From positions 16,169 through 80,168 of the forward strand of contig CAVRFQ010000011.1 of NCBI GenBank assembly GCA_963720415.1: DNA of 64,000 nucleotides, written 5' to 3'. This DNA is from an uncultured Solirubrobacteraceae bacterium (GTDB lineage: Bacteria; Actinomycetota; Thermoleophilia; Solirubrobacterales; Solirubrobacteraceae). Each line of letters begins with the position of its first letter. The stretch's first letter is position 1. Shown piece after piece: positions 13,313 through 25,352 of this stretch. The position numbers and the translations under genes were made by a program. Under the pieces are notes generated by a model. It was not told the origin of the DNA. It saw only the letters and a program-made list of their open reading frames with translations, and did not search any database.

Positions 13313-14559
13313 TGAGCGACACGCGACACCTGATCGGGCTCCTGCTCGGCACCGAGGAGGACTGGCCGCGCGCCTTCGAGACGCTGCTGGACCGCGTCGG
13401 CCCGGTCAAGGACGCGTCCGGCACCACGCATCGCGTCGACGTCGAGCGGATCACCATCGAGCCCTTCGACCTGCGCGACAAGCCGCGCTACGACCTCGTG
13501 GTCGACCGCCTCGCCTACTGGTACTTCGTCCCGCGCGAGTGGCTGAAGAAGGTCTCGCTGATGGACGACGTGTACCTGCTCAACAGCCCGTTCACGTTCC
13601 AGTCGATGGAGAAGCACGCCGCGTACTGCGCGATGCTGCGGCTCGGGCTCAAGGTCCCGCAGACCGTGCTGATCCCGCAGAAGGTCCCGCCCGACAACGA
13701 GCGCTTCGCGTACACCGCGGCCAAGTACAACCAGCCGTTCGACCTCGAGGAGATCGCCGCCCGGATCGGCTACCCGCTGTTCATGAAGCCCTATGACGGC
13801 GGCCAGTGGGTCGGCGTGACCCACATCTCCGGGCCCGAGGAGCTCAAGCGCGCGTACGACGAGTCCGGCCAGCGGCTCATGCACCTGCAGGCGGCGGTCG
13901 ACGGCTTCGACGTCTTCGCCCGCTCGCTCTCGATCGGCGCCGAGACGATGGTCATGAAGTTCCGCCCCGACCTCCCGATGCACGACCGCTACGCGGTCTC
14001 GCACGACTTCCTCACGCCGGAGACGGGCGAAGAGGTGCTGACGATCAGCCGCCTCATCAACGCGTTCTTCCGCTGGGAGTTCAACTCGTGCGAGACGCTC
14101 GTGCGCGGGACCGAGGCGCACCCGATCGACTACGCCAACGCGTCGCCCGACGTGGCGGTCACCAGCCTGCACTACTACTTCCCGTGGGCGATGTCGGCGC
14201 TCCTGCGCTGGTGCATCTTCTGCGTCGTCACCGGCCGCGAGCCGCGGATGGACCTCGACACCCGGCACTACTTCGAGATCGGCGACCGCGAGGACCTCAC
14301 CTACGAGGAGAAGCTCGCTGCCTATCGCAAGCTCGCCGACGAGTACTTCGAGGTCGAGCGCTATCAGGACTTCTGCGACAGCCGGCTGCCGCACGTCGAC
14401 GAGCTGGTCTATGAATGGGTCTCATCCGCCGACTTCGACAACCTCCTCCTCGAGACGGTCACGAGCACCTACCCCAGGCATGAGCAGGAGCAGTTCATCG
14501 CACACTTCCGAGGCCTGATCGGGCAGTGGGTGCGCGAGCGGCAGCCGACGCCTGGGTGA
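13312..14559 (+). CDS. ATP-grasp-like protein of unknown function
   Basis: MSDTRHLIGLLLGTEEDWPRAFE..IGYPLFMKPYDGGQWVGVTHISGPEELKRAYDESG..MHLQAAV.. with a long C-terminal extension. TGATG overlap with upstream stop. Confidence 0.8.
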   Translation: MSDTRHLIGLLLGTEEDWPRAFETLLDRVGPVKDASGTTHRVDVERITIEPFDLRDKPRYDLVVDRLAYWYFVPREWLKKVSLMDDVYLLNSPFTFQSMEKHAAYCAMLRLGLKVPQTVLIPQKVPPDNERFAYTAAKYNQPFDLEEIAARIGYPLFMKPYDGGQWVGVTHISGPEELKRAYDESGQRLMHLQAAVDGFDVFARSLSIGAETMVMKFRPDLPMHDRYAVSHDFLTPETGEEVLTISRLINAFFRWEFNSCETLVRGTEAHPIDYANASPDVAVTSLHYYFPWAMSALLRWCIFCVVTGREPRMDLDTRHYFEIGDREDLTYEEKLAAYRKLADEYFEVERYQDFCDSRLPHVDELVYEWVSSADFDNLLLETVTSTYPRHEQEQFIAHFRGLIGQWVRERQPTPG

Positions 14560-15354
14560 CCGGCAGCACCGTCCAGTCCGGGTGGCCGGGCATCGGCGGC
14601 GTCGTCGTCCCGTAGACCCACGCCCGCAGGAACGAGCGCAGGTCGCGACCGGAGACCTTCGAGGCGAGCGCGATGAAGTCGCCGGTCGAGGCCGACTCGC
14701 CCTCGTAGCGCCGCAGCCACTCGTGCTCGACGCGGTCGAACGCGCGCTGACCGATCTTCTGGCGCAGCGCGTAGAGCACGAGCGCCCCGCCTGGATAGAC
14801 GTTCCGGCGGGCACGTCGAGCGCGAAGGAGAACGTCGCCTTGTCGCTCGGGTGGTCGTTGGACGGGAAGATGTCGTGCGCGAGGTCCGGCTGCGCCGACA
14901 TGGCGGTGCCGTCCGGCGTCACGAAGAACGCCACGCTGACGTCGGCGTCGGTCGGCACCGCGGTGAAGCGCGCGCGGACCACGAAGACCTCGTGGTCGCG
15001 CAGCGCCCGCCCGGGCGTGACGACCAGCTCCTCGCCGGCGCGGGTCCAGCTCGCGGCGCGTCCGTCGACCGTGACGCCGGCGACGCTCTCGCCGGCGAAG
15101 TCGAGGTTGAAGCGTGAGAGGGCCTGCGTCGCGCGCGCGACGATGGTGACCCTCCCGTCGATGGGCTGCGCCGGCGCGCTGGTCGCGTAGCGCAGGTCGA
15201 GGTGGTAGTGGAGGGCGTCGTAGCCCCCGTTCCCCAGGCCGGGGAAGAGCCGGTCGTCCACGCTCGCGGCGCCGGGCGTCGGCCGCTGCGAGGCGGCGGC
15301 CGGCGTGACGGATACGGCGAGGAGGACGGCGGCGAGCACGATGGCGTACCGCAT
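14495..15354 (-). pseudogene. M1-family metallopeptidase with catalytic core deleted
   Basis: Signal peptide MRYAIVLAAVLLAVSVTPAAAS, then the M1 N-terminal domain (DRLFPGLGNGGYDALHYHLDLRY..ATFSFALDVPAG). The frame then changes and continues as the M1 C-terminal region (NVYPGGALVLYALRQKIGQRAFDRVEHEWLRRYEGESASTGDFIAL..MPGHPDW, ORF 14495..15367). No GxMEN/HExxH segment lies between them. Junction at about 14800-14806. Confidence 0.65.
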
Positions 15355-15370
15355 CGGCCGACGCCAACCG

Positions 15371-15400
15371 GCCGCCGCCCCTCCGGTGAAGGGCGGCGGC
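15371..15400 (-). terminator. GC hairpin after M14 gene (GCCGCCGCCC-10 nt-GGGCGGCGGC)
   Basis: 10-bp perfect stem located 22 nt after the M14 stop (15422-15424) on the minus strand. No U-tract. Confidence 0.4.
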
Positions 15401-15421
15401 ACGATTCCGGACCCCGATTAC

Positions 15422-17782
15422 TCAGTCGGCCCGAACGCAGGAGTCGCGCAGGTCCAGCTCGCGGCGCTCGCCGCGGGCGACGGCCACCTGGCGGGCCGAG
15501 CGGATGGTGCCGTCGGCGTCCTCGCAGAACAGCGTCCAGGTCTCCGCCCGGGCCGGCTGGAACGCCTCCGGGCCCTCGAAGGTCACGCTGCCGGTCCACG
15601 GCTCCGCGCCCGCGAAGTTGACCACCCGGACGACGTACTCGCCGGGCCGCGGATCGCCGAGCACGACCTGCTCGAAGCTCGTCGTGCCCTGGGCCGAGCT
15701 GCCGACCTCGACGCCGTCGCGCAGCACGCGGACGTCGTAGTCGCTGACGGGCGAGGGCCACTCCACGCGGATCGTGGCCCGCGCGTTGTCGATCCCCTCA
15801 CCGGCCGGGACCGTGATCACGTGGTCTTCGTAACACGTCTCCGGCGGGTCGTCGAAGTTCGCGCACGGGGTCGACTCGCCGCGCGGGGCGAACGACGCCG
15901 GCGGGCTCGGGTCGCCCGTCGCCTCGCGGCCGCGCTCCTGCGCCACCAGCGGGCGGGTCGACTGGTTCACGTGCCACTCGAACGCCCCGTCCTCGCCGGC
16001 CTGCATCGTGCTGTCGAGCGTGTCGGTGAACGTCGTGTCCTGCGACGTCGGGGTCTCGAACGTCTTGCGCAGGCGCAGCACCGCGCCCGCGGGCGCCGTG
16101 CCCGTGAGGACCGCGTGCTTGGACGCGTCGGCCGTGCTCTCCTGCGCGAGGAAGTACGCGGCCCGGTTGCCGCCCTCGTACTCGGCGACCGTCTCCGCGA
16201 ACGGCGGGTGGAAGTGCTCCGGCCCGATCTCGAACGTGAAGCCGAGGCCGCCGGTGGCGTAGTAGCTCCAGTCCTCGGTCGTGCCGGTGGTGTCGTAGAG
16301 CTGGTAGCTGAGCTGGCTCGCGTAGCCGTTCTCGGCGGCCATCGCGTCGCCCAGCGCCTTGTAGATCGGCTCGTCCGGCGTGAGGCCCTGGGCCTGGATC
16401 CCGGGCGGGCGCAGCACGAGGTTGGAGAACGTGTGGTTGGTGATCAGCGTGGTCACCTGGCGCGACGCGACCAGGTCGCGCACGTTCCGGGTCTCCGGCT
16501 CGGAGAACGGACCGGTGCCCCAGTAGGTCTCGTTGGTCGGGTCGCCGGACGCGCCGGCGCCGCCCCAGAAGCCGCCGTAGTTGCGGTTGGGGTCCACGCC
16601 CGCGCTGGCGAGGCCGAACGCCGGCTGCAGGCAGCTGCCGGCCGCTTCGCCGGTGACCAGGCGGCAGTTCTTGCGCCGGTACTCGTTCGGGTGGGTGAGG
16701 ATGTTGATGGTCTCCTCGTCCGCGGTGCCGCCACGCCCGTCGCCGGCGCCGTAGAGCTCGCCGGCCTCGCGCGAGGCGTTGAAGCCGTCGGGGTTCACGA
16801 CCGGGACGACGATCGTGCGCGTCGTCTCGACCAGCCGCCGCGTCCTGGCGTCGCCGCGGCGATGGCCGAGGATCAGCTCGTACGCCCACTCGATCGCGTG
16901 CTCGGCCGACGGCCACTCGCGCGCGTGGTGCGCGCCCATCTGCAGGAACACCGGCTTGCCGTCACGCGCGCCCGGGTTCGTCGTGATCTCGATGCCCTCG
17001 ACCGGGCGCCCCTCGTACGTCGCGTGGTTGAGCGTGATCGGCTTGACGAGGTCCGGGTGCTCGCGCGCGAGGCGCTTCATGTCCTCGCCGTAGTCGAACA
17101 GCCGGCGGTACGTCGTGCGCCCGCTGGGAAGCTCGGAAGCGGTCGTCGTGGCGTCGAACGCCGCGTCGGCCCGGCGGTCGCGGCGGCCCTGCGCCGTGAG
17201 GTCCGCGATCCGCGTCGTGAAGGAGAAGCCCGCGGCGCGCAGCCTCTGCGCGTCCGCCGCGCCGTGCAGCACCACGTCGAGGAAGCCGTCGCCGCCGTGC
17301 TCCGTGACGTCGAGCCCCGAGCTCGCGAGCTGCTGGGCGCGCTCGCGCGTCGGCGTGGCCACGCGCACGAGCGAGGCCGGCTCGGCGCTGCCGGCCCGCA
17401 CGCGCTCGGTGGCGACGTCGAGCGACGCGCTGCCGGCGCCGCCGGAGAGCCGGCACGCCTGCACGGTCAGCGTCGCGGCGCCGGTCACGAAGCCCTGCGC
17501 GAGCTCGCGGCCGCCGCGGTAGGCCGAGCCCGCGACCAGCCGGCCGGTCAGCGTGTCGAACACGGCCAGGTCCCAGTCTCCGGCGCCGCCGTCGAGCCGG
17601 GCGGTGACCGTGCCCGCGCCGGCGGCGAGGATCGTCCGTTGCGCGTACCCGCCGCCGGCGCGCAAGAGCTTCGCCGTGCAGCTGCGCTCGACCGCCGTGG
17701 GCACCGTCACCGTCGCGGCGCTCGCGGGCGCCGCGCAGACCAGCGCCGCCGCCACGGCCGCCGGGAAGAGGAGTCGTCTCAT
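15422..17782 (-). CDS. secreted M14-family zinc carboxypeptidase with N-terminal PPC-like domain
   Basis: Signal peptide MRRLLFPAAVAAALVCAAPASA. M14 motifs QMGAHHAREWPS and IVVPVVNPDGF. 786 aa. Confidence 0.9.
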   Translation of the reverse strand: MRRLLFPAAVAAALVCAAPASAATVTVPTAVERSCTAKLLRAGGGYAQRTILAAGAGTVTARLDGGAGDWDLAVFDTLTGRLVAGSAYRGGRELAQGFVTGAATLTVQACRLSGGAGSASLDVATERVRAGSAEPASLVRVATPTRERAQQLASSGLDVTEHGGDGFLDVVLHGAADAQRLRAAGFSFTTRIADLTAQGRRDRRADAAFDATTTASELPSGRTTYRRLFDYGEDMKRLAREHPDLVKPITLNHATYEGRPVEGIEITTNPGARDGKPVFLQMGAHHAREWPSAEHAIEWAYELILGHRRGDARTRRLVETTRTIVVPVVNPDGFNASREAGELYGAGDGRGGTADEETINILTHPNEYRRKNCRLVTGEAAGSCLQPAFGLASAGVDPNRNYGGFWGGAGASGDPTNETYWGTGPFSEPETRNVRDLVASRQVTTLITNHTFSNLVLRPPGIQAQGLTPDEPIYKALGDAMAAENGYASQLSYQLYDTTGTTEDWSYYATGGLGFTFEIGPEHFHPPFAETVAEYEGGNRAAYFLAQESTADASKHAVLTGTAPAGAVLRLRKTFETPTSQDTTFTDTLDSTMQAGEDGAFEWHVNQSTRPLVAQERGREATGDPSPPASFAPRGESTPCANFDDPPETCYEDHVITVPAGEGIDNARATIRVEWPSPVSDYDVRVLRDGVEVGSSAQGTTSFEQVVLGDPRPGEYVVRVVNFAGAEPWTGSVTFEGPEAFQPARAETWTLFCEDADGTIRSARQVAVARGERRELDLRDSCVRAD

Positions 17783-17818: not shown

Positions 17819-20248
17819 TCAGCGGCCGATGCGCAGCGCCGAGTCCTCGATCGTCGCGAGCCCGTCCATGCCGCCGAGGGCGGTCTCGGGCCCGAGGCCG
17901 CCCTCCGATCCGAGGAAGACCACCGCCGCGTCGTCGAGGCTCACCGGCTCCGCGACGCCGACCACGAGGTCGAGGATGCGGTCGCCGTTCACGTCGAGCA
18001 GCGACAGCGACTCGCCGAAGGCCGCGCCCTTCGCGGCGTCGTGCTCGAGCGTCAGCGTGTCGGCCTTGCCCTCGATCGAGCGCGCGCCGTGGATGACGGC
18101 GACCGCGCCCGCGGCGCCGGAGTAGCGCGCGCCGACGATCACGTCCCCCAGCCCGTCGCCGTTCGTGTCGCCGGCCTCGACCGCGTGCCCGAACTCGGTG
18201 CCGCCCTCGACCGGCAGGCCGGCGAGGTCCTCCGTGACGACGATCGGCTCGGCCACCGGCCCGTCCTCGCCGGCGCCCCACAGCCGCACCTCGCCCTCGC
18301 GCGCGGTCTCGCCGTCCCACGGCGCCTGGTCGCCCTGGACGACCTCCAGGTACCGGTCCCCGTTGAGGTTGCCGATGGCGAGCGCCGAGGTCCCCCAGCC
18401 GCCGGAGTCCGGGAACTCGGTGCAGGCGGTCGGTCCGTCGGGTGTCCCGGGGCAGTACGCGATGTGGCCGATGAGCTCGTTGTCGGGCTCGCCCATCGTG
18501 CCCTCGACGAGGTCGAGGTTGCCGTCGCGGTCGACGTCCCCGACCTCGAGGAAGCGCCCGAAGCCGACCGTCTCGTTCTCCGGGGGCTCGAGTCGCCGCG
18601 CGCGGTCGGCCGCCAGGCCGTCGGCGCCGCCGAAGAAGACGTGCACGGCGCCGTCGAGGTCGTTGCGCCGGTCCGCCGGCGATCCGGGGGTGCCGACCAC
18701 GAGGTCCGCGAAGCCGTCGCGGTCCAGGTCGCCGGCCGTCAGCGCGAACCCGAACGCCTCCGCCTGCGGCGGGGCCGACAGGAGGGTCGGCCGCAGCGGC
18801 GCGCCCCGGCGGGCCGGCGCCGACTCGTCCCCGTAGAGGAGCGCAACGATGTTGCGGCCGGGCGCGCCGATGGCCAGGTCCTGCTCGCCGTCGTCGTCGA
18901 AGTCGGCGCTCGCCAGCGCGGCGCCGTAGCGGTCGCCGCGTCGTCCGGCGCCCAGGCCTGCCGCCTCGGAGCTGATCAGCGAGGCCTCCCCGTTGTCGGG
19001 GCCGGGGTGGACGAGGACCATCCCGGCGCGCTCCGTGCCGCCTTCCGGCGAGCCGCCGGAGGCGCCCAGCACCACCTGCTGGCTGCCGTCGCGGTTGAAG
19101 TCGTACGGCGCGAACCGCTCGTCGTCCCCGCCGCCGCCGGCCAGCACGACCACGCCGGCCGCGACGGCGGCCACGGCAGCGGCCGCGCCGGCGGCCGCCA
19201 CCGCCGGGCGGCGCCACCATGGCGCAGGAGGCGGAGGTCGAGGCGGTGGTGGCGGAGGCGGGTCGCGCTTGCCGAGCGCCTCGCGCGCCGCCGCCTTCAC
19301 CGAGTCGCTGTCGTCGCGCGCCAGGCCCTCGAGCGTGTCGCGCGCGAGCGCCGCGAGCCCCGGCGCGCCCGAGCCCATGAGCGCGGCCAGCTCGCTCACC
19401 GCTCCCAGGCGGATCCCGGCCAGGTTGCTGCGCACCGCCGTGCCGAGCTCCGGCGGCAGCTTGACCCGGCGCGTGCTGTGGGCGATCACGATGTCGCCGC
19501 TCACCTCGCCGCTCATCCGCGGCGTCTGGTGCGCCGAGATCTCGCGCACCCGCGAGCGCGCGTAGTCGTAGAGGTCGTCGACCGAGATCGCGCCGTCGTC
19601 GTCGGTGTCCGCCTCGCCGGTGCGCAGGCCCTCGATCAGCACGCGGGTGAACAGCGACCCCGGCTCGGCGGCGTCCAGCTCGTTGATCCCGGTGGCGGGG
19701 TCGGACTCCTCGAACGCGTACTCGAGCTCGCTCGACGCCGTCAGCGTCACCCGCCCGTGGCCGTCGAAGCGATGCTCGACGTCGACGCTCAGCGCGCTCT
19801 TGGGCACGAGCCCCTTGCCGAACGCCCCGCTGTGGCAGCAGTCGAGCACCACGACGATCGACCTGGCGCGGCTGGAGTCCATCGCCTCGTTGACGAAGCG
19901 GTCCTCGATGGCGGTCGTCCGCACCCACTCGAGCTCGGTGCTCGCCGTCGCGAAGTAGAAGCGCCGGTCCTGCGACAGCACGCCGTGGCCGGAGAAGTAG
20001 AAGAGCAGCAGGTCGTTGCGCGCGCTGTCGCGGAAGAACTCCTCGATCCGCTTCTTGATCGTGTCGGTGGGCTCGTCGACGAGCTGCTGGACGTCGAAGC
20101 CGCCGATCGCCGGGTCGCCGAGCACGCCGGCGAGCGCCGCGACGTCACCGGTCGGCGCCCGCAGCGAGGCCAGGCCGGGATCGCCGTAGGTGCCGCTGGC
20201 GATCAGCAGCGCGCGGCGCGAGCGTCCCGGCGCGTCATCCGCCGCCAT
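17819..20248 (-). CDS. caspase-like (peptidase C14) - HEAT repeat - TM - 7x FG-GAP beta-propeller protein
   Basis: N-terminal RRALLIASGTY..LLLFYFSGHG (His)..VVVLDCCHSG (Cys). HEAT-like LAGIRLGAVSELAALM..SVKAAAREALGK. Poly-Pro linker, then TM WWRRPAVAAAGAAAAVAAVAAGVVVLAG. Seven FG..gD.d.DG..DL.vG repeats (e.g. FGFALTAGDLDRDGFADLVVGTPG). Confidence 0.9.
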   Translation of the reverse strand: MAADDAPGRSRRALLIASGTYGDPGLASLRAPTGDVAALAGVLGDPAIGGFDVQQLVDEPTDTIKKRIEEFFRDSARNDLLLFYFSGHGVLSQDRRFYFATASTELEWVRTTAIEDRFVNEAMDSSRARSIVVVLDCCHSGAFGKGLVPKSALSVDVEHRFDGHGRVTLTASSELEYAFEESDPATGINELDAAEPGSLFTRVLIEGLRTGEADTDDDGAISVDDLYDYARSRVREISAHQTPRMSGEVSGDIVIAHSTRRVKLPPELGTAVRSNLAGIRLGAVSELAALMGSGAPGLAALARDTLEGLARDDSDSVKAAAREALGKRDPPPPPPPRPPPPAPWWRRPAVAAAGAAAAVAAVAAGVVVLAGGGGDDERFAPYDFNRDGSQQVVLGASGGSPEGGTERAGMVLVHPGPDNGEASLISSEAAGLGAGRRGDRYGAALASADFDDDGEQDLAIGAPGRNIVALLYGDESAPARRGAPLRPTLLSAPPQAEAFGFALTAGDLDRDGFADLVVGTPGSPADRRNDLDGAVHVFFGGADGLAADRARRLEPPENETVGFGRFLEVGDVDRDGNLDLVEGTMGEPDNELIGHIAYCPGTPDGPTACTEFPDSGGWGTSALAIGNLNGDRYLEVVQGDQAPWDGETAREGEVRLWGAGEDGPVAEPIVVTEDLAGLPVEGGTEFGHAVEAGDTNGDGLGDVIVGARYSGAAGAVAVIHGARSIEGKADTLTLEHDAAKGAAFGESLSLLDVNGDRILDLVVGVAEPVSLDDAAVVFLGSEGGLGPETALGGMDGLATIEDSALRIGR

Positions 20249-20594
20249 GGCGCGCCAGGAACGTCTCGACGAGCCGCCGCTGGTCGGCGTCGGACGCGTT
20301 CTCGACCGTGAGCTTGTCGCCGTCGATCTCGAGCGTGACCGCGGCCTTCGGGTGGCGCTCGAGCCACGCCTGGAGGGCCATGATCATCGGCGGCACGGTG
20401 CCGACGAGCGTCACCACCAGCTGCGCCCATTCGACGGCGCCGCCCTTGGCGCCGGCGGGCGCCGGCATCGACGGGTGCGACACGTCGTCCACGCCGCGGT
20501 CGAGCATCTCCTCCCGCAGGCGCCAGGCGAGATCCGCTCGCTCCTCGTCGTCGCTGTCCGGAAAGCCCACGACCTGCAGGCGGATCTCGGTCAT
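20235..20594 (-). CDS. small EACC1-like protein (effector-associated constant component; assignment from memory)
   Basis: Start set at ATG 20594 (GGAG 7 nt upstream): MTEIRLQVVGFPDSDDEERADLAWRLREEML..PAGAKGGAVEWAQLVVTLVGTVPPMIMALQAWLERHP..VTLEIDGDKLTVENASDADQRRLVETFL. 119 aa. Its stop lies 14 nt inside the caspase gene. Confidence 0.65.
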   Translation of the reverse strand: MTEIRLQVVGFPDSDDEERADLAWRLREEMLDRGVDDVSHPSMPAPAGAKGGAVEWAQLVVTLVGTVPPMIMALQAWLERHPKAAVTLEIDGDKLTVENASDADQRRLVETFLARHGGG

Positions 20595-20697
20595 GACAGC
20601 TCCGACCGTAACCCCTTTCGTCAGCCGCGCGCAAGCGCGCGCCGCTCCGCGGCGCGCAGCCACGAGCCGCGCACCATCCCGCTGCCGGGGCGGACGA

Positions 20698-20877
20698 CGA
20701 GCCAAGTAGCGGGCGGGCGATCCGCAGCGAGCGCAGCCCGAGCAGGACCGTGGCGAGGCGCATCTCGGCGACCGTCACCGCGCGGGCGGCCGCCAGGGCG
20801 GCCTCGGGCGAGGCGGCGACGGCGCGCTCGTGCCGGTCCCGCCAGTCGGGATCGGGCAGGACGTCGTCGAGCGTCAT
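20698..20877 (-). pseudogene. possible 5' fragment of an SRPBCC-like/hypothetical gene
   Basis: The first ~60 codons of ORF 20203..20877 (MTLDDVLPDPDWRDRHERAVAASPEAALAAARAVTVAEMRLATVLLGLRSLRIARPLL) look protein-like. The rest is junk and runs into the EACC1-like gene. Confidence 0.3.
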
Positions 20878-20934: not shown

Positions 20935-23900
20935 TCAGTCGAGCAGGTGGCGCACGGTGCGGCGCATCACCGCGTTGCGCTCGGCCTGCGTCGCGATCCC
21001 CTCGAACCCGAAGCCGAAGAGCAGCGAGTCCGGGGTGCTGATCGTGGCGCCGACCGGGAACCCGGAGTCGTCCGTCCGGATCCAGTTGTTGGCGTTCGCC
21101 CCGCTGGACGCGGGCTGGGCGGGAGTCCAGCCGTCGAACCCGGCCTCGAACGACGTGGTGCTGCCGTCCGGCAGCACGAAGTCGTCGAGGAAGACGCCGA
21201 GGTTCTGGACGGACCAGTCGCTGACGTAGGCGATCGAGATCTCGACCGTCTCGCCGGCGTAGCCGTCCAGGTCGATGCTCCACTGCTGCCAGCCGGCGGA
21301 GTTGCCGGAGGCGCCGTTCCACACGCCGGTCGAGCCCGTCGACGTGCACGTGTCCGGCGGGCCGGGCACGAACGTCGCGTAGTGGTCGATCTGCGGGTGG
21401 ATGTCCCGGAGCGCGGCGTCGCAGCTGTCACCGGGGTCGGTGTTGGTGTGCCCGTTGGCGTCCGGCAGCGTCGTCCAGTCGTCGCCGCCCGGCGTGCGGG
21501 CCTCCACGAACAGGTGGTCCCAGTCCGGCTCGGTGTCGTACGAGGTCCAGAACGTGAAGTCGCCGCCGCCCGCGGGCACGGCGATCTCGCGCGTCAGGCG
21601 CTTGTACGTCACGTCGGCGATCTGGGAGTACACGTACTGCGTGCCCGTGCGCGGCGAGAACGGCCCGCCGGGCTTGTCCCACCGGGACGACGGCCAGCTG
21701 TTGAACTGCGGGAACTGGCTCCGCGGCAGGATGCCGCTCGTCGAGACGAACGACGCGCTCATGCCCTGGTTGTCGGCGCTCTCCGGGCCGCCGAAGCCCC
21801 ACGTCAGGCCCGCGAACGGATCGTCGAGCCCGGCGATGTCGAACTGGTTGCCCTCCTCGTCGAAACCGTCGCCCGGCGCTATCGCGTACGCGCCGAACCA
21901 GTACTCGAGCACGTCCCCGACGAGGTCGCTCTGCGGCGCCCCGAAGAGCCCGAGGCAGCGCCGGGGCTCGAACGCCGGGTTCGGCTCCCCGTCGATGAAG
22001 CACGGGCCCTCGCCCTTCGGGTCGTAGAACTGCTGGCCCACCGCGCCGCCGGACACGAACTGGTGGCCGGCGAAGGCGCCGGTGTAGAGCACCCTGCCGC
22101 CCTCGTTCATGTACGAGCGGAACTCGAGGATCTCGTCGAGCGCGAGCCGGTCCGCGTTGCCCGCGCCCCAGCCCGTGCGACGGGTGACGGCGTCGTCGCC
22201 CGTGTACCAGATGACCGCGTCGTAGTGGCTGAGCACGCCGAGGTGGTCCGGCGCCGTGCGCCCGCGGGCGTCGACGTCGTACACGTCGGCCTTCACGCCG
22301 TTGGCCCGGAGCGCGTCGAGGTAGTAGTCGAGGTAGTGCGGACCGGGCGTCTGCACGGGCGAGGCGCCCGTGTAGTCCTCGGCCGCCACCACGAGCACCT
22401 TGCGGTTCGAGTCGGACACGACCTCGTAGGTGAACGAGTCGGAGCGGTACTCCCTGCGCCCCTCGTCGCCCTCGAACCAGACCTTGACCCGGTCGCCGGG
22501 GTCGCCGCCCTTCACCACGCCGCGCAGCTCGTGGTAGTAGACGGCGGCCGGCTTGTACTTCTCGCCGCCGCGCCACTCCTTGGTGCTCGCGCTCTGCGTC
22601 CGGCCGTTGTTGATCCGGTACTTGAGCGTGACGTTCCCGAGGCTCCGCTTGGCCAGCACGTGCACCGGCTGCGGGTCGCCATAGGAGTAGTCGAACGAGA
22701 AGTTCGCGCCCGGGATGCCGCCCTTGTACGGGTCGTCGCTCTCGAGGTAGAACGGCTTGGTCTCGATGCCCAGCGACGAGTCCGGGTCGTCCGGGTCGTC
22801 CGCGGACTCGACCACCGACTTCGCGAACGGCAGGTTGCGCTCGAACTCGGCCTGCACCAGCGCCTCGTCGTCGGGGAACACGAAGCCGCAGCCCTCGCAG
22901 CCCTCGGACAGCTCGGGCGTCCACGCGAGCGCGCCGCGCTCGGCGTGGGCGTAGTCCGTCGTCTCGCCGTTGGTGACGTAGAGGACGTCGGAGCTCAGGC
23001 CCGGATGGAAGTCCGGGATCGCCGGCTCGTCGAGGTTGCCCGACAGGGCGTAGTAGATCGGGTCGTCGGCGGTCGCCGTGCCGATCTGCCAGCCCTCGGC
23101 GTAGAGCAGCCACTGCCCGGCCGAGTGCCAGTTGACGTGGAAGCGGAAGTCGAGGTCGTCGAGCAGGCCCTTCAGGGCCTTGGTCTCGCGCTCGGAGCCG
23201 GCGCTCGGCCCGCGGTAGGTCTCGCTCGAGAAGATCGAGGACGAGCCCTCCTCGTCGTACTTCCAGTGCGCGGGCCAGTTGCGGTTCGGGTCGACGCCGT
23301 CGCCGATGTTGACGATGCCGTCGCCGTTGTTGTCGCGCAGGTTCTTGCGCCACAGCCGCTCGCCCTCGAACGTGTACTGATAGCCGTCCGGGTTGGCGCT
23401 CAGCACGAACCACAGCTCGGTCTCGCCGAGCAGGTCGCGGACGTGCCGGTTGCCCGAGTTGTAGCGGTCGATGTAGTAGTGCATGAGCCGCCGGTTGACC
23501 TCCGGCGTGATCCACTCGCGGGCGTGCTGGTTGGAGCTGAAGAGCACGGCGTCCCGCTTTCCGTCCTTCACGGAGCGGGCGTCCTTGGTGACCTTCAGCG
23601 CGAGGATCTCGCGCCCGTTGAGCGTGGTCCCGAGCTTCACCAGCTTGGTGAGCTTCGGGTTCTCGCGCGCGGTCTCGCGCAGCTCGTCGCGGAGGCCGCC
23701 GGGCTCGTCCCACGAGCGCCACACGTTGAAGCCGTTGGCCGCCTGGCGAGCGGCGAACTGCTGCACGGTCAGCCCACCCTTCACGCGCGTGAGCTGCGCG
23801 TTCACGCCGTCCGCGGCGAGCTTGTCGCGCTGGTCGGCGGTCATGATCAGGTCGACCTCGGTCCCGCCGCGCACCTTCCTCGCGCCCTCGAGATCGAAGC

Positions 23901-24042
23901 CCGAGGCGGTCACGGCCGCCAGCCCGCGCGCGTCGACGATCGCCGTGTAGGCGTCGAGGCGATCGCGCGCGGCGGCGCCTGCAGGCGCGGCCACGACCAG
24001 GAGGGCAGCCGCAACCGCGGCAGCCAGCAAGCACCTACGCAT
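20935..24042 (-). CDS. large secreted M14-family carboxypeptidase with ~600-aa C-terminal extension
   Basis: Start set at ATG 24042 (GGGGAGGGG SD upstream). Signal peptide MRRCLLAAAVAAALLVVAAPAGAA. Motifs SSNQHAREWITPE, VLSANPDGYQY, DPNRNW, WHSAGQWLLY. 1035 aa. Confidence 0.9.
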   Translation of the reverse strand: MRRCLLAAAVAAALLVVAAPAGAAARDRLDAYTAIVDARGLAAVTASGFDLEGARKVRGGTEVDLIMTADQRDKLAADGVNAQLTRVKGGLTVQQFAARQAANGFNVWRSWDEPGGLRDELRETARENPKLTKLVKLGTTLNGREILALKVTKDARSVKDGKRDAVLFSSNQHAREWITPEVNRRLMHYYIDRYNSGNRHVRDLLGETELWFVLSANPDGYQYTFEGERLWRKNLRDNNGDGIVNIGDGVDPNRNWPAHWKYDEEGSSSIFSSETYRGPSAGSERETKALKGLLDDLDFRFHVNWHSAGQWLLYAEGWQIGTATADDPIYYALSGNLDEPAIPDFHPGLSSDVLYVTNGETTDYAHAERGALAWTPELSEGCEGCGFVFPDDEALVQAEFERNLPFAKSVVESADDPDDPDSSLGIETKPFYLESDDPYKGGIPGANFSFDYSYGDPQPVHVLAKRSLGNVTLKYRINNGRTQSASTKEWRGGEKYKPAAVYYHELRGVVKGGDPGDRVKVWFEGDEGRREYRSDSFTYEVVSDSNRKVLVVAAEDYTGASPVQTPGPHYLDYYLDALRANGVKADVYDVDARGRTAPDHLGVLSHYDAVIWYTGDDAVTRRTGWGAGNADRLALDEILEFRSYMNEGGRVLYTGAFAGHQFVSGGAVGQQFYDPKGEGPCFIDGEPNPAFEPRRCLGLFGAPQSDLVGDVLEYWFGAYAIAPGDGFDEEGNQFDIAGLDDPFAGLTWGFGGPESADNQGMSASFVSTSGILPRSQFPQFNSWPSSRWDKPGGPFSPRTGTQYVYSQIADVTYKRLTREIAVPAGGGDFTFWTSYDTEPDWDHLFVEARTPGGDDWTTLPDANGHTNTDPGDSCDAALRDIHPQIDHYATFVPGPPDTCTSTGSTGVWNGASGNSAGWQQWSIDLDGYAGETVEISIAYVSDWSVQNLGVFLDDFVLPDGSTTSFEAGFDGWTPAQPASSGANANNWIRTDDSGFPVGATISTPDSLLFGFGFEGIATQAERNAVMRRTVRHLLD

Positions 24043-24086
24043 ATGTGTCCCCTCCCCACTGGAAATGGAGTAGGCGGTGAAGCCTT

Positions 24087-25352
24087 TCACTCGGTCGCGC
24101 CGTGCGCAACTTCCTGATAGCGCGAGTCGTACGACCACAGGCGCGGCATCGCCGCCGTCAGCGCGGCGATGCCGCCCACGCAGACCACGCCGCCCGCCAC
24201 CACCGAGGCCCGCAGGCCGAGCAGCGCGGCCGCGGCGCCCGCCTCGGCGTTGCCGAGCAGCGGCCCCGAGGACCACGAGATCATCTCCAGGCCGGCGAGC
24301 CGCCCGCGCAGGCGGTCGGGGATCGTCTCGTTCCAGATCGTCGCCCGGAACACGCCGGAGATCGCGTCCGCCCCGCCGGCCAGCGCCAGGAAGAACAGCG
24401 CGAGCCACAGCTCATGGGCGAGCCCGAACGCCGCGATCGCGACGCCCCAGCCGCACGCGGCCAGAACCACGGCGCGCCCGTGGCGGTGCACCCGCGCGGT
24501 CCAGCCGCTCGCGGCCAGGACGATCACCGCGCCGGCCGACGGCGCCGCGTAGAGCAGGCCGACCACCGCCCCGCCGCCGTAGTCGGCGGCCAGCGCCGGG
24601 AAGAGCGCCATCGGCATGGCGAAGAACATGGCGACCATGTCGACGAGGTAGGTGCCGAGCAGCTCCTGCCGCGAGCGGGCGAACTGCAGGCCCTCGACGA
24701 TCGCCTTCAGCCCGAGCGGCTGGCGCTCGGTCGGCGGCGGCGTGCGCATGGCGGCCAGCGCGGCGAGCGAGATCACGAACGTCGCGAGGTCGACGGCGTA
24801 CGTGACGCCGTAGCCGGCCGACGCGATCAGCACGCCCGCGACCGCCGGCCCGGCCAGCGATGCGAGGTTCGAGACCCCCCAGCTGAGCGCGCTCGCGGCC
24901 TTCAGCTCGTCGCGCTCCACGAGCCGCGGCAGCATGGCGTCGAGCGGCGGCCGGCGGATGGCCGAGAAGCCCGCGATCAGCGCCGCGGCCACGTAGAGGA
25001 ACCAGACGTGGGGATCCTCGAGCGTCGCGTTGAGCACCAGCCCGCCGACCGCCACGATGGCACCGACCTCGGCGAGCATGACGAGCCGCCGGCGGTCGAA
25101 CGCGTCGGCCAGCGCGCCGCCGACCAGCGCGAGCACGAGGATCGGCACGAACTCGGCGATCCCGAGCAGCCCGACGGCGACGGTCGAGCCGGTGAGCTCG
25201 TAGACCTGCACCGGGACCGCGACCAGCGTGATCATCGAGCCGAGCAGCGAGGTCGCCTGCCCGAAGATGAGCAGGCGCAGCTCCCGCCGCCGGCGCAGGA
25301 GGTCCGCGTCGACGGCGAGCGCGCGCAGGATCCGCGCGAGGCGCTGCCTCAC
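24087..25352 (-). CDS. MFS transporter
   Basis: 421 aa, multi-TM profile (LIFGQATSLLGSMITLVAVPVQVYELTGS.. EntS-like). GTG 25352 overlaps upstream TGA (GTGA). Confidence 0.9.
   Translation of the reverse strand: MRQRLARILRALAVDADLLRRRRELRLLIFGQATSLLGSMITLVAVPVQVYELTGSTVAVGLLGIAEFVPILVLALVGGALADAFDRRRLVMLAEVGAIVAVGGLVLNATLEDPHVWFLYVAAALIAGFSAIRRPPLDAMLPRLVERDELKAASALSWGVSNLASLAGPAVAGVLIASAGYGVTYAVDLATFVISLAALAAMRTPPPTERQPLGLKAIVEGLQFARSRQELLGTYLVDMVAMFFAMPMALFPALAADYGGGAVVGLLYAAPSAGAVIVLAASGWTARVHRHGRAVVLAACGWGVAIAAFGLAHELWLALFFLALAGGADAISGVFRATIWNETIPDRLRGRLAGLEMISWSSGPLLGNAEAGAAAALLGLRASVVAGGVVCVGGIAALTAAMPRLWSYDSRYQEVAHGATE

Follow-up and report, generated by a model that had tools for sequence, protein, structure and literature searches.

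Within a 64,000-nucleotide stretch of contig CAVRFQ010000011.1 (hereafter the window), from the genome of an uncultured Solirubrobacteraceae bacterium, a small gene on the minus strand (20235..20594) encodes a protein of 119 amino acids (aa; P0001) that belongs to the EACC1 family and is followed directly by the gene of an EACC1-type caspase. We consider it probable that this protein is a latent pore-forming effector, released by the protease with which it is encoded, in an EACC1-caspase two-gene conflict system, a bacterial module for cell suicide and immunity. What the analysis itself shows is family membership, the linkage of the two genes, an intact catalytic dyad in the protease, the fold model and the pattern of conservation. 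The finding is an ordinary one and of little discovery value, as the gene fits a family that already has Pfam and NCBIfam models, a description from 2020 and a preprint from 2025. What remains of value is a prediction of the cut site and a variant of the system that has an ectodomain as its sensor.

The initial annotation, made from the sequence alone, had likened the protein to EACC1. The Pfam hidden Markov model (HMM) of the family, PF19953, bears this out with 41 bits (E 2.1e-10) against a gathering score of 23.6, matching residues 14-110 to profile positions 4-101 of 107. No NCBIfam model matches the protein itself. A six-frame search of the 4.24-Mb, 59%-complete genome returned this gene as the sole match to PF19953. 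Like other members of the family, the protein stands alone and has a central hydrophobic maximum (residues 56-78), which is flanked by short alpha+beta extensions in a model built with AlphaFold2 (AF2). Within this hydrophobic segment, columns 64-66 and 68-69 are mostly A, G, S, T or P when 122 representatives, taken at 50% identity, are aligned. Sequence comparison supports the gene as a true member of an already described family. Two larger proteins carry an EACC1-like domain at the C-terminus by profile match, one of 1377 aa (P0232) after ParA-like (CbiA), NB-ARC and TPR domains, the other of 442 aa (P0141) after sigma-70 region 2 and TPR; the Pfam EACC1 model gave no match to either at E ≤ 1e-4.

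Relatives of the protein are found in uncultured soil Solirubrobacteraceae (Actinomycetota). A search yielded 192 homologues; all 120 of those listed match PF19953, and most of the 120 are exactly 119 aa long with the same M-T-E start. A profile search that covered 1.84 billion cluster representatives found 2340 of them at E ≤ 0.001 and 1005 at E ≤ 1e-10. Homology thus settles the question of whether the open reading frame (ORF) at 20235-20594 is a real gene, and we are confident that it is not a chance frame. Composition alone would be weak evidence, because spurious ORFs abound on both strands around the gene. G+C at the three codon positions (0.77/0.44/0.94) is similar to that of the neighbouring caspase gene, and an antisense frame has an equal value at the third position. 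In a window with 72.9% G+C, the many overlapping spurious ORFs and this antisense frame could raise the suspicion that the frame is open by chance or that its start was mis-called. That explanation is refuted by the PF19953 match, by the number and uniform length of the homologues and the yield of the profile search, and by conservation of gene order and of the overlap between the start and stop codons; a confident fold prediction also speaks against it. We give it practically no weight. A longer reading of 156 aa from a TTG at 20705 was rejected, since the lengths of the homologues give it no support.

The boundaries of the gene and the sequence stretches that the initial annotation had quoted from its product agree exactly with the frame and its translation. 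The Shine-Dalgarno sequence that it had pointed out, GGAG, lies at 20600..20603 (minus), and 5 nt separate it from the ATG at 20594. As it had also claimed, the gene overlaps the caspase gene: the TGA stop (20235-20237) lies inside the latter, whose ATG is at 20248, so that the two share 14 nt (20235..20248, minus) and are expected to be translationally coupled.

Linkage to a C14 caspase gene, which the initial annotation had proposed to check, holds in nearly all related loci examined. Among 26 related loci, this gene is directly downstream of EACC1 in 24, adjacent but divergent in one, and lost in one; in other words, the homologues are not scattered over unrelated contexts. We compared 14 orthologous loci of the genus, each within a 16-kb stretch. 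A caspase/FG-GAP gene directly follows EACC1 in 13 of them, and in the 11 whose caspase gene is full-length, start and stop still overlap, by 14-23 nt. In most genomes of the genus the locus has an ATP-grasp gene on one side and an MFS transporter gene on the other.

Paralogous loci in the genus vary this arrangement. One (L036) pairs EACC1 with a caspase-CBM_4_9 gene through a 4-nt overlap. Another (L037:6875-10554, G017:C6) holds EACC1 (minus) and caspase-WD40 (plus) genes about 110 nt apart, with a histidine kinase gene directly downstream of EACC1, and is the only divergent pair seen. Extra caspase sequence is present in two loci. Directly upstream of one EACC1-caspase pair is a second EACC1-type caspase domain (L031:9868-10788, G010:C12) that is 65% identical and for which no EACC1 of its own was detected. 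Just downstream of a full caspase gene is a fragment of about 90 residues (L026:5302-5574, G023:C16), 72% identical to the N-terminus of the caspase and scoring 63 bits against NF047832 in a genome search; it is probably a remnant of a duplication.

Outside the genus, a caspase domain is encoded directly downstream of EACC1 in all five loci from three other Actinomycetota genomes. Three Anaerolineales loci combine EACC1 with caspase-FGE-sulfatase or caspase-TPR. The system also crosses the divide between bacteria and archaea, as pairs are present at two loci in metagenome-assembled genomes (MAGs) of Nitrososphaeraceae (ammonia-oxidising archaea; 35-37% G+C). One of these loci is intact and has a caspase-pentapeptide-TPR gene (L058:1809-4226), and the other looks fragmented (L059:5613-7181). 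We regard the archaeal occurrence as a point of modest use. Among the relatives the constant caspase is joined to C-terminal domains of many kinds (FG-GAP, WD40, CBM_4_9, FGE-sulfatase, TPR, pentapeptide+TPR and TIR).

Of 24 other genomes in the genus, 18 yielded the gene, whereas 16 genomes that belong to the same order but to different families gave no match with this query. When the phylum was sampled evenly, the family turned up in at least 3 of 300 other genomes, a lower bound because only 15 candidates were scored per genome. The distribution is sporadic at large scale and stable within the genus.

The partner of EACC1 in the window is an 809-aa protein (P0002; 17819..20248, minus) that matches the NCBIfam model NF047832, 'caspase, EACC1-associated type', with 166.5 bits against a cut-off of 140, together with the Pfam models Peptidase_C14, FG-GAP and FG-GAP_3. 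It consists, in order, of a caspase domain, a Pro-rich linker, one transmembrane (TM) helix and an FG-GAP propeller. The caspase (C14) domain occupies residues 11-246 (19511..20218, minus), with H88 and C138 as the catalytic residues. The His-Cys dyad is intact, and H88, C137 and C138 do not vary among 11 full-length orthologues. Only one solved structure is matched by the sequence of this domain, that of Trypanosoma brucei MCA2 (TbMCA2; PDB 4afr). The two proteins share the D-C-C-H-S-G and S-G-H-G motifs of metacaspases and orthocaspases as well as the equivalents of the S1 pocket; they differ in that the match is weak (E 0.004) and that Pro occupies the position of Cys92 in the protein studied here. 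D35, S86 and D136, all invariant in the 11 orthologues, align with Asp95, Ser156 and Asp211 of TbMCA2, which form the pocket accommodating basic P1 side chains (PMC4357240, PMC6426788). Judged by this alignment, the caspase retains both acidic S1-pocket residues of metacaspases, and we predict that it prefers a basic P1 residue.

The single TM helix (residues ~348-375; 19124..19207, minus) reaches 2.33 in a 19-residue Kyte-Doolittle window. A poly-Pro linker and WWRR come before it and GGGGDDE after it, and the 11 aligned orthologues likewise have basic residues ahead of the stretch and, in most, acidic or Gly-rich residues behind it. By the positive-inside rule, the caspase domain should be cytoplasmic and the propeller should face outward. 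The FG-GAP region (residues 376-809; 17822..19123, minus) is thus predicted to be an extracytoplasmic beta-propeller and presumed to be the sensor; Pfam finds FG-GAP (E 8.8e-34, five stretches) and FG-GAP_3 between residues ~449 and 800. Conservation is uneven along the module. Mean pairwise identity among the 11 orthologues is 74% for the caspase domain, 65% for EACC1 and 61% for the 251-325 linker, falling to 41% for the Pro-rich/TM segment and 43% for the FG-GAP ectodomain. A constant protease and effector combined with a fast-changing surface domain would fit a sensor under diversifying pressure, and relaxed constraint is a possible alternative cause of the divergence. Most of the 120 clusters nearest to the caspase domain are also of the caspase+FG-GAP type, and this variant is abundant in soil metagenomes.

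Pairs of this kind were described by Kaur et al. 2020 (eLife, PMC7159879) as 'System 4', in which the 5' gene, EACC1, is constant and the 3' gene encodes a caspase. The caspase partners carry some 50 alternative C-terminal domains, and at least 33% of the proteins have TM helices (PMC7159879). The module in the window shares with System 4 the small 5' EACC1 gene, the 3' gene whose product begins with a caspase domain and varies at its C-terminal end, the actinobacterial host, the TM helix of the partner and the small-residue patch in the hydrophobic segment, and both proteins score above the cut-offs of their HMMs. The difference lies in the C-terminal part, an FG-GAP ectodomain here and a TM plus periplasmic-binding-protein domain in the example given in that paper. 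FG-GAP is not mentioned in the main text of PMC7159879 or of the preprint by Evans et al. 2025 (10.1101/2025.11.14.688446). The initial annotation had named caspases and trypsins as partners of EACC1. It was right about caspases, whereas the literature assigns trypsin partners to the NucA and Pepco/Trypco systems and gives EACC1 either caspases or a cNMP cyclase that displaces the caspase (PMC7159879; 10.1101/2025.11.14.688446).

Evans et al. studied the pair EACC1-KrAvs12 from Ktedonobacter racemifer. There, the caspase cuts EACC1 into fragments of 5.7 and 7.1 kDa, toxicity is confined to the C-terminal fragment, and liposomes are permeabilised only after cleavage (10.1101/2025.11.14.688446). 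In the authors' model, the N-terminal piece supplies an autoinhibitory strand that packs against two strands of the C-terminal part. In an AlphaFold3 complex the catalytic Cys adjoins a 'putative' site at Asp49, and toxicity was kept when the cut was shifted (10.1101/2025.11.14.688446). Our protein is a member of the same family, likewise of ~13 kDa and paired with a caspase-like protease. The sensors are unlike: in K. racemifer, tail-connector proteins of phage are recognised by a STAND ATPase in the cytoplasm, and the present partner has a TM helix and an FG-GAP ectodomain.

The AF2 model of EACC1 was built from a 49-sequence alignment and has a mean predicted local distance difference test (pLDDT) of 85.2 and a predicted template modelling score (pTM) of 0.79. 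A strand (3-10) and a helix (16-32) are followed by a low-confidence Gly/Pro loop (33-51), and the C-terminal part comprises a strand (58-62), a helix (67-80), a hairpin (85-98, with strands 85-90 and 93-98) and a helix (102-117). The layout proposed in the initial annotation, a strand, an acidic helix, a Gly-rich loop and a C-terminal part, therefore stands, except for the hydrophobic helix at 56-78, which is modelled as strand 58-62 plus helix 67-80. With a maximum of 1.62 in a 19-residue Kyte-Doolittle window, segment 56-78 is a borderline candidate for a TM helix. The model instead describes a soluble ferredoxin-like alpha+beta sandwich with the putative TM helix inside the fold, which would agree with the picture of a latent monomer. 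Its N-terminal strand and helix lie on C-terminal strands, the same predicted architecture as that of the K. racemifer protein. Structure searches of the PDB did not find a solved relative: Foldseek returned nothing at E ≤ 0.001 (best E 0.037), and the best hits of VIA-align wide (Z up to 6.8) were generic ferredoxin-like sandwiches within the noise level. This is no demonstration of a new fold.

The loop between the two parts (residues 33-51; codons at 20442..20498, minus) is a predicted protease-accessible linker, with pLDDT falling to about 59 in block 41-50. In the alignment of 122 representatives it contains a motif that reads P46 (89%)-x-G48 (85%)-[AST]49-[K/R]50 (98%)-G51-[D/E]52 (59%). 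The basic residue at position 50 is far more conserved than the other polar residues of the loop, as illustrated by D or E at positions 36 (66%) and 37 (25%), and K50 itself (codon 20445-20447) is invariant in 11 orthologues of the genus. Because K/R50 is near-universal, the S1 pocket is of the acidic metacaspase type and the fragment sizes come close to those in the preprint (computed masses of 5.6 and 7.4 kDa for a cut after K50), we predict that the scissile bond is K50|G51, within P-x-G-A-K|G. The combination of a basic loop residue with an acidic S1 pocket yields a testable prediction that departs from the Asp of the preprint, which was taken from a structural model.

Taken together, the best explanation that we can offer runs as follows. 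EACC1 would be co-translated with a membrane-spanning protease that has its caspase domain in the cytoplasm and its propeller outside. It would be made as a harmless, soluble alpha+beta monomer in which residues 1-32, the first strand and helix, form a cap over the hydrophobic C-terminal part. The caspase domain would become active once the variable region, here the fast-evolving extracytoplasmic propeller, senses a signal, and would then cut EACC1 in loop 33-51, after K50. The freed C-terminal fragment (~7.4 kDa) could oligomerise into membrane pores that kill or arrest the cell, an abortive-infection type of immunity. We infer that cleavage and pore formation proceed as in K. racemifer, and where exactly the cut falls, how the protease is oriented in the membrane and what kind of trigger acts on it likewise belong to the inferred part of this scheme. 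The logic would be that of the bacterial (bGSDM) and mammalian gasdermin-protease pairs, in which a self-inhibited, latent pore former is freed by a neighbouring caspase-like protease. Gasdermins have no relation to EACC1 in sequence or fold, however, and their inhibitory piece is C-terminal, whereas that of EACC1 is N-terminal.

Two other explanations deserve consideration. In the proposal of Kaur et al., EACC1 spans the membrane as a sensor and switches the caspase on (PMC7159879). On this account, a single-pass membrane EACC1 acts as sensor or adaptor, and the activated caspase frees its own variable domain as the effector by autoproteolysis. Arguing for this, segment 56-78 is hydrophobic and bears the small-residue patch that the authors describe, and the partner is membrane-anchored, so the two proteins could meet in the membrane. 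Counter to this, AF2 places the segment as a strand and a helix within a confident soluble fold, its hydropathy is borderline (1.62, compared with 2.33 for the TM helix in the caspase protein), and an extracytoplasmic propeller could not be released by a cytoplasmic protease and has no obvious toxic activity. The preprint, moreover, identified EACC1 itself as the cleaved, toxic effector (10.1101/2025.11.14.688446). We consider a sensor role for EACC1 to be improbable. Alternatively, the biochemistry may be the same and the purpose other than defence against phage, with the module acting as an outside-in death or signalling switch for envelope damage, cell-cell contact or a signal from neighbours, as in programmed cell death, developmental or kin-related, among soil Solirubrobacteraceae. 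The sensor does face outward in our prediction, and the site between the ATP-grasp and MFS genes is conserved in most of the genus and is not a mobile island. Kaur et al. tie the system to a multicellular habit (PMC7159879), and fusions of EACC1 to DnaK suggest stress responses (10.1101/2025.11.14.688446). Yet a fast-evolving ectodomain, with 43% identity, is consistent with an arms race against a parasite outside the cell, for instance an adsorbing phage; the characterised relatives respond to phage proteins (10.1101/2025.11.14.688446); and the family is sporadic in the phylum sample. We therefore judge a role unconnected with phage to be rather unlikely.

Several points weigh against the caspase-released pore former, or against parts of it. 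The evidence for its mechanism is one preprint on a distant homologue, so that the argument proceeds by analogy from a caspase fused to a cytoplasmic STAND protein (Avs12) to one with a TM helix and an ectodomain. The putative cut site in that homologue, Asp49, is not basic, and our prediction of K50 may conflict with it; the Asp that the family consensus carries two residues past K50 may be the residue picked out by the AlphaFold3 model of the homologue. No PADLOC model matches the protein. The pair occupies one conserved site on the chromosome in 18 of 24 genomes of the genus, which resembles a housekeeping or developmental role passed on vertically more than it does a mobile island of defence genes. 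The caspase frame is short in L027 and L034 (457 and 497 aa) and no start codon was found for it in L024, which in MAGs may reflect decay or assembly error. Finally, one genus locus (L029, G005:C1) has an intact EACC1 gene with no adjacent caspase gene or remnant in its 16 kb, tblastn finding no remnant there at E up to 10. The orthologue in this locus (L029:7990-8360, minus) is 119 aa long and would be an orphan latent effector, with an M14 carboxypeptidase gene about 35 nt later; an EACC1-type caspase is present on another contig of the same genome (G005).

We also put forward, tentatively and as a possibility that we would not call likely, an outside-in death switch. An integrin-like FG-GAP propeller at the surface would detect an external ligand, the single TM helix would pass the signal on, the cytoplasmic metacaspase-type protease would dimerise and become active, and EACC1 would be cut after K/R50, rather than after an Asp as in the proposal for the studied homologue, to free the pore former. 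Candidate ligands would be receptor-binding proteins of phage and cues from the envelope or from neighbouring cells. If true, this would be a bacterial pathway from surface receptor to pyroptosis that acts before or at phage adsorption. The abundance of the caspase-TM-FG-GAP form in soil Solirubrobacteraceae makes it a good case for asking what ectodomain sensors detect.

On either side of the module in the window lies a large gene for an M14 zinc carboxypeptidase (15422-17782 and 20935-24408, both minus), the upstream one with an InhA-like MAM domain. The downstream gene begins 36 nt past the caspase stop and was considered as a third component; it was rejected, being adjacent in only 4 of the 13 caspase-bearing loci of the genus. 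The upstream gene is present in 2 of the 14 genus loci. Because they are present only sometimes, we do not count the M14 genes as parts of the module, and their variable presence among genomes of the genus marks the stretch between the ATP-grasp and MFS genes as a variable region. Further downstream (14422-15402, minus), two ORFs of 326 and 290 aa overlap in different frames, as if a single gene had been degraded or had suffered a frameshift.

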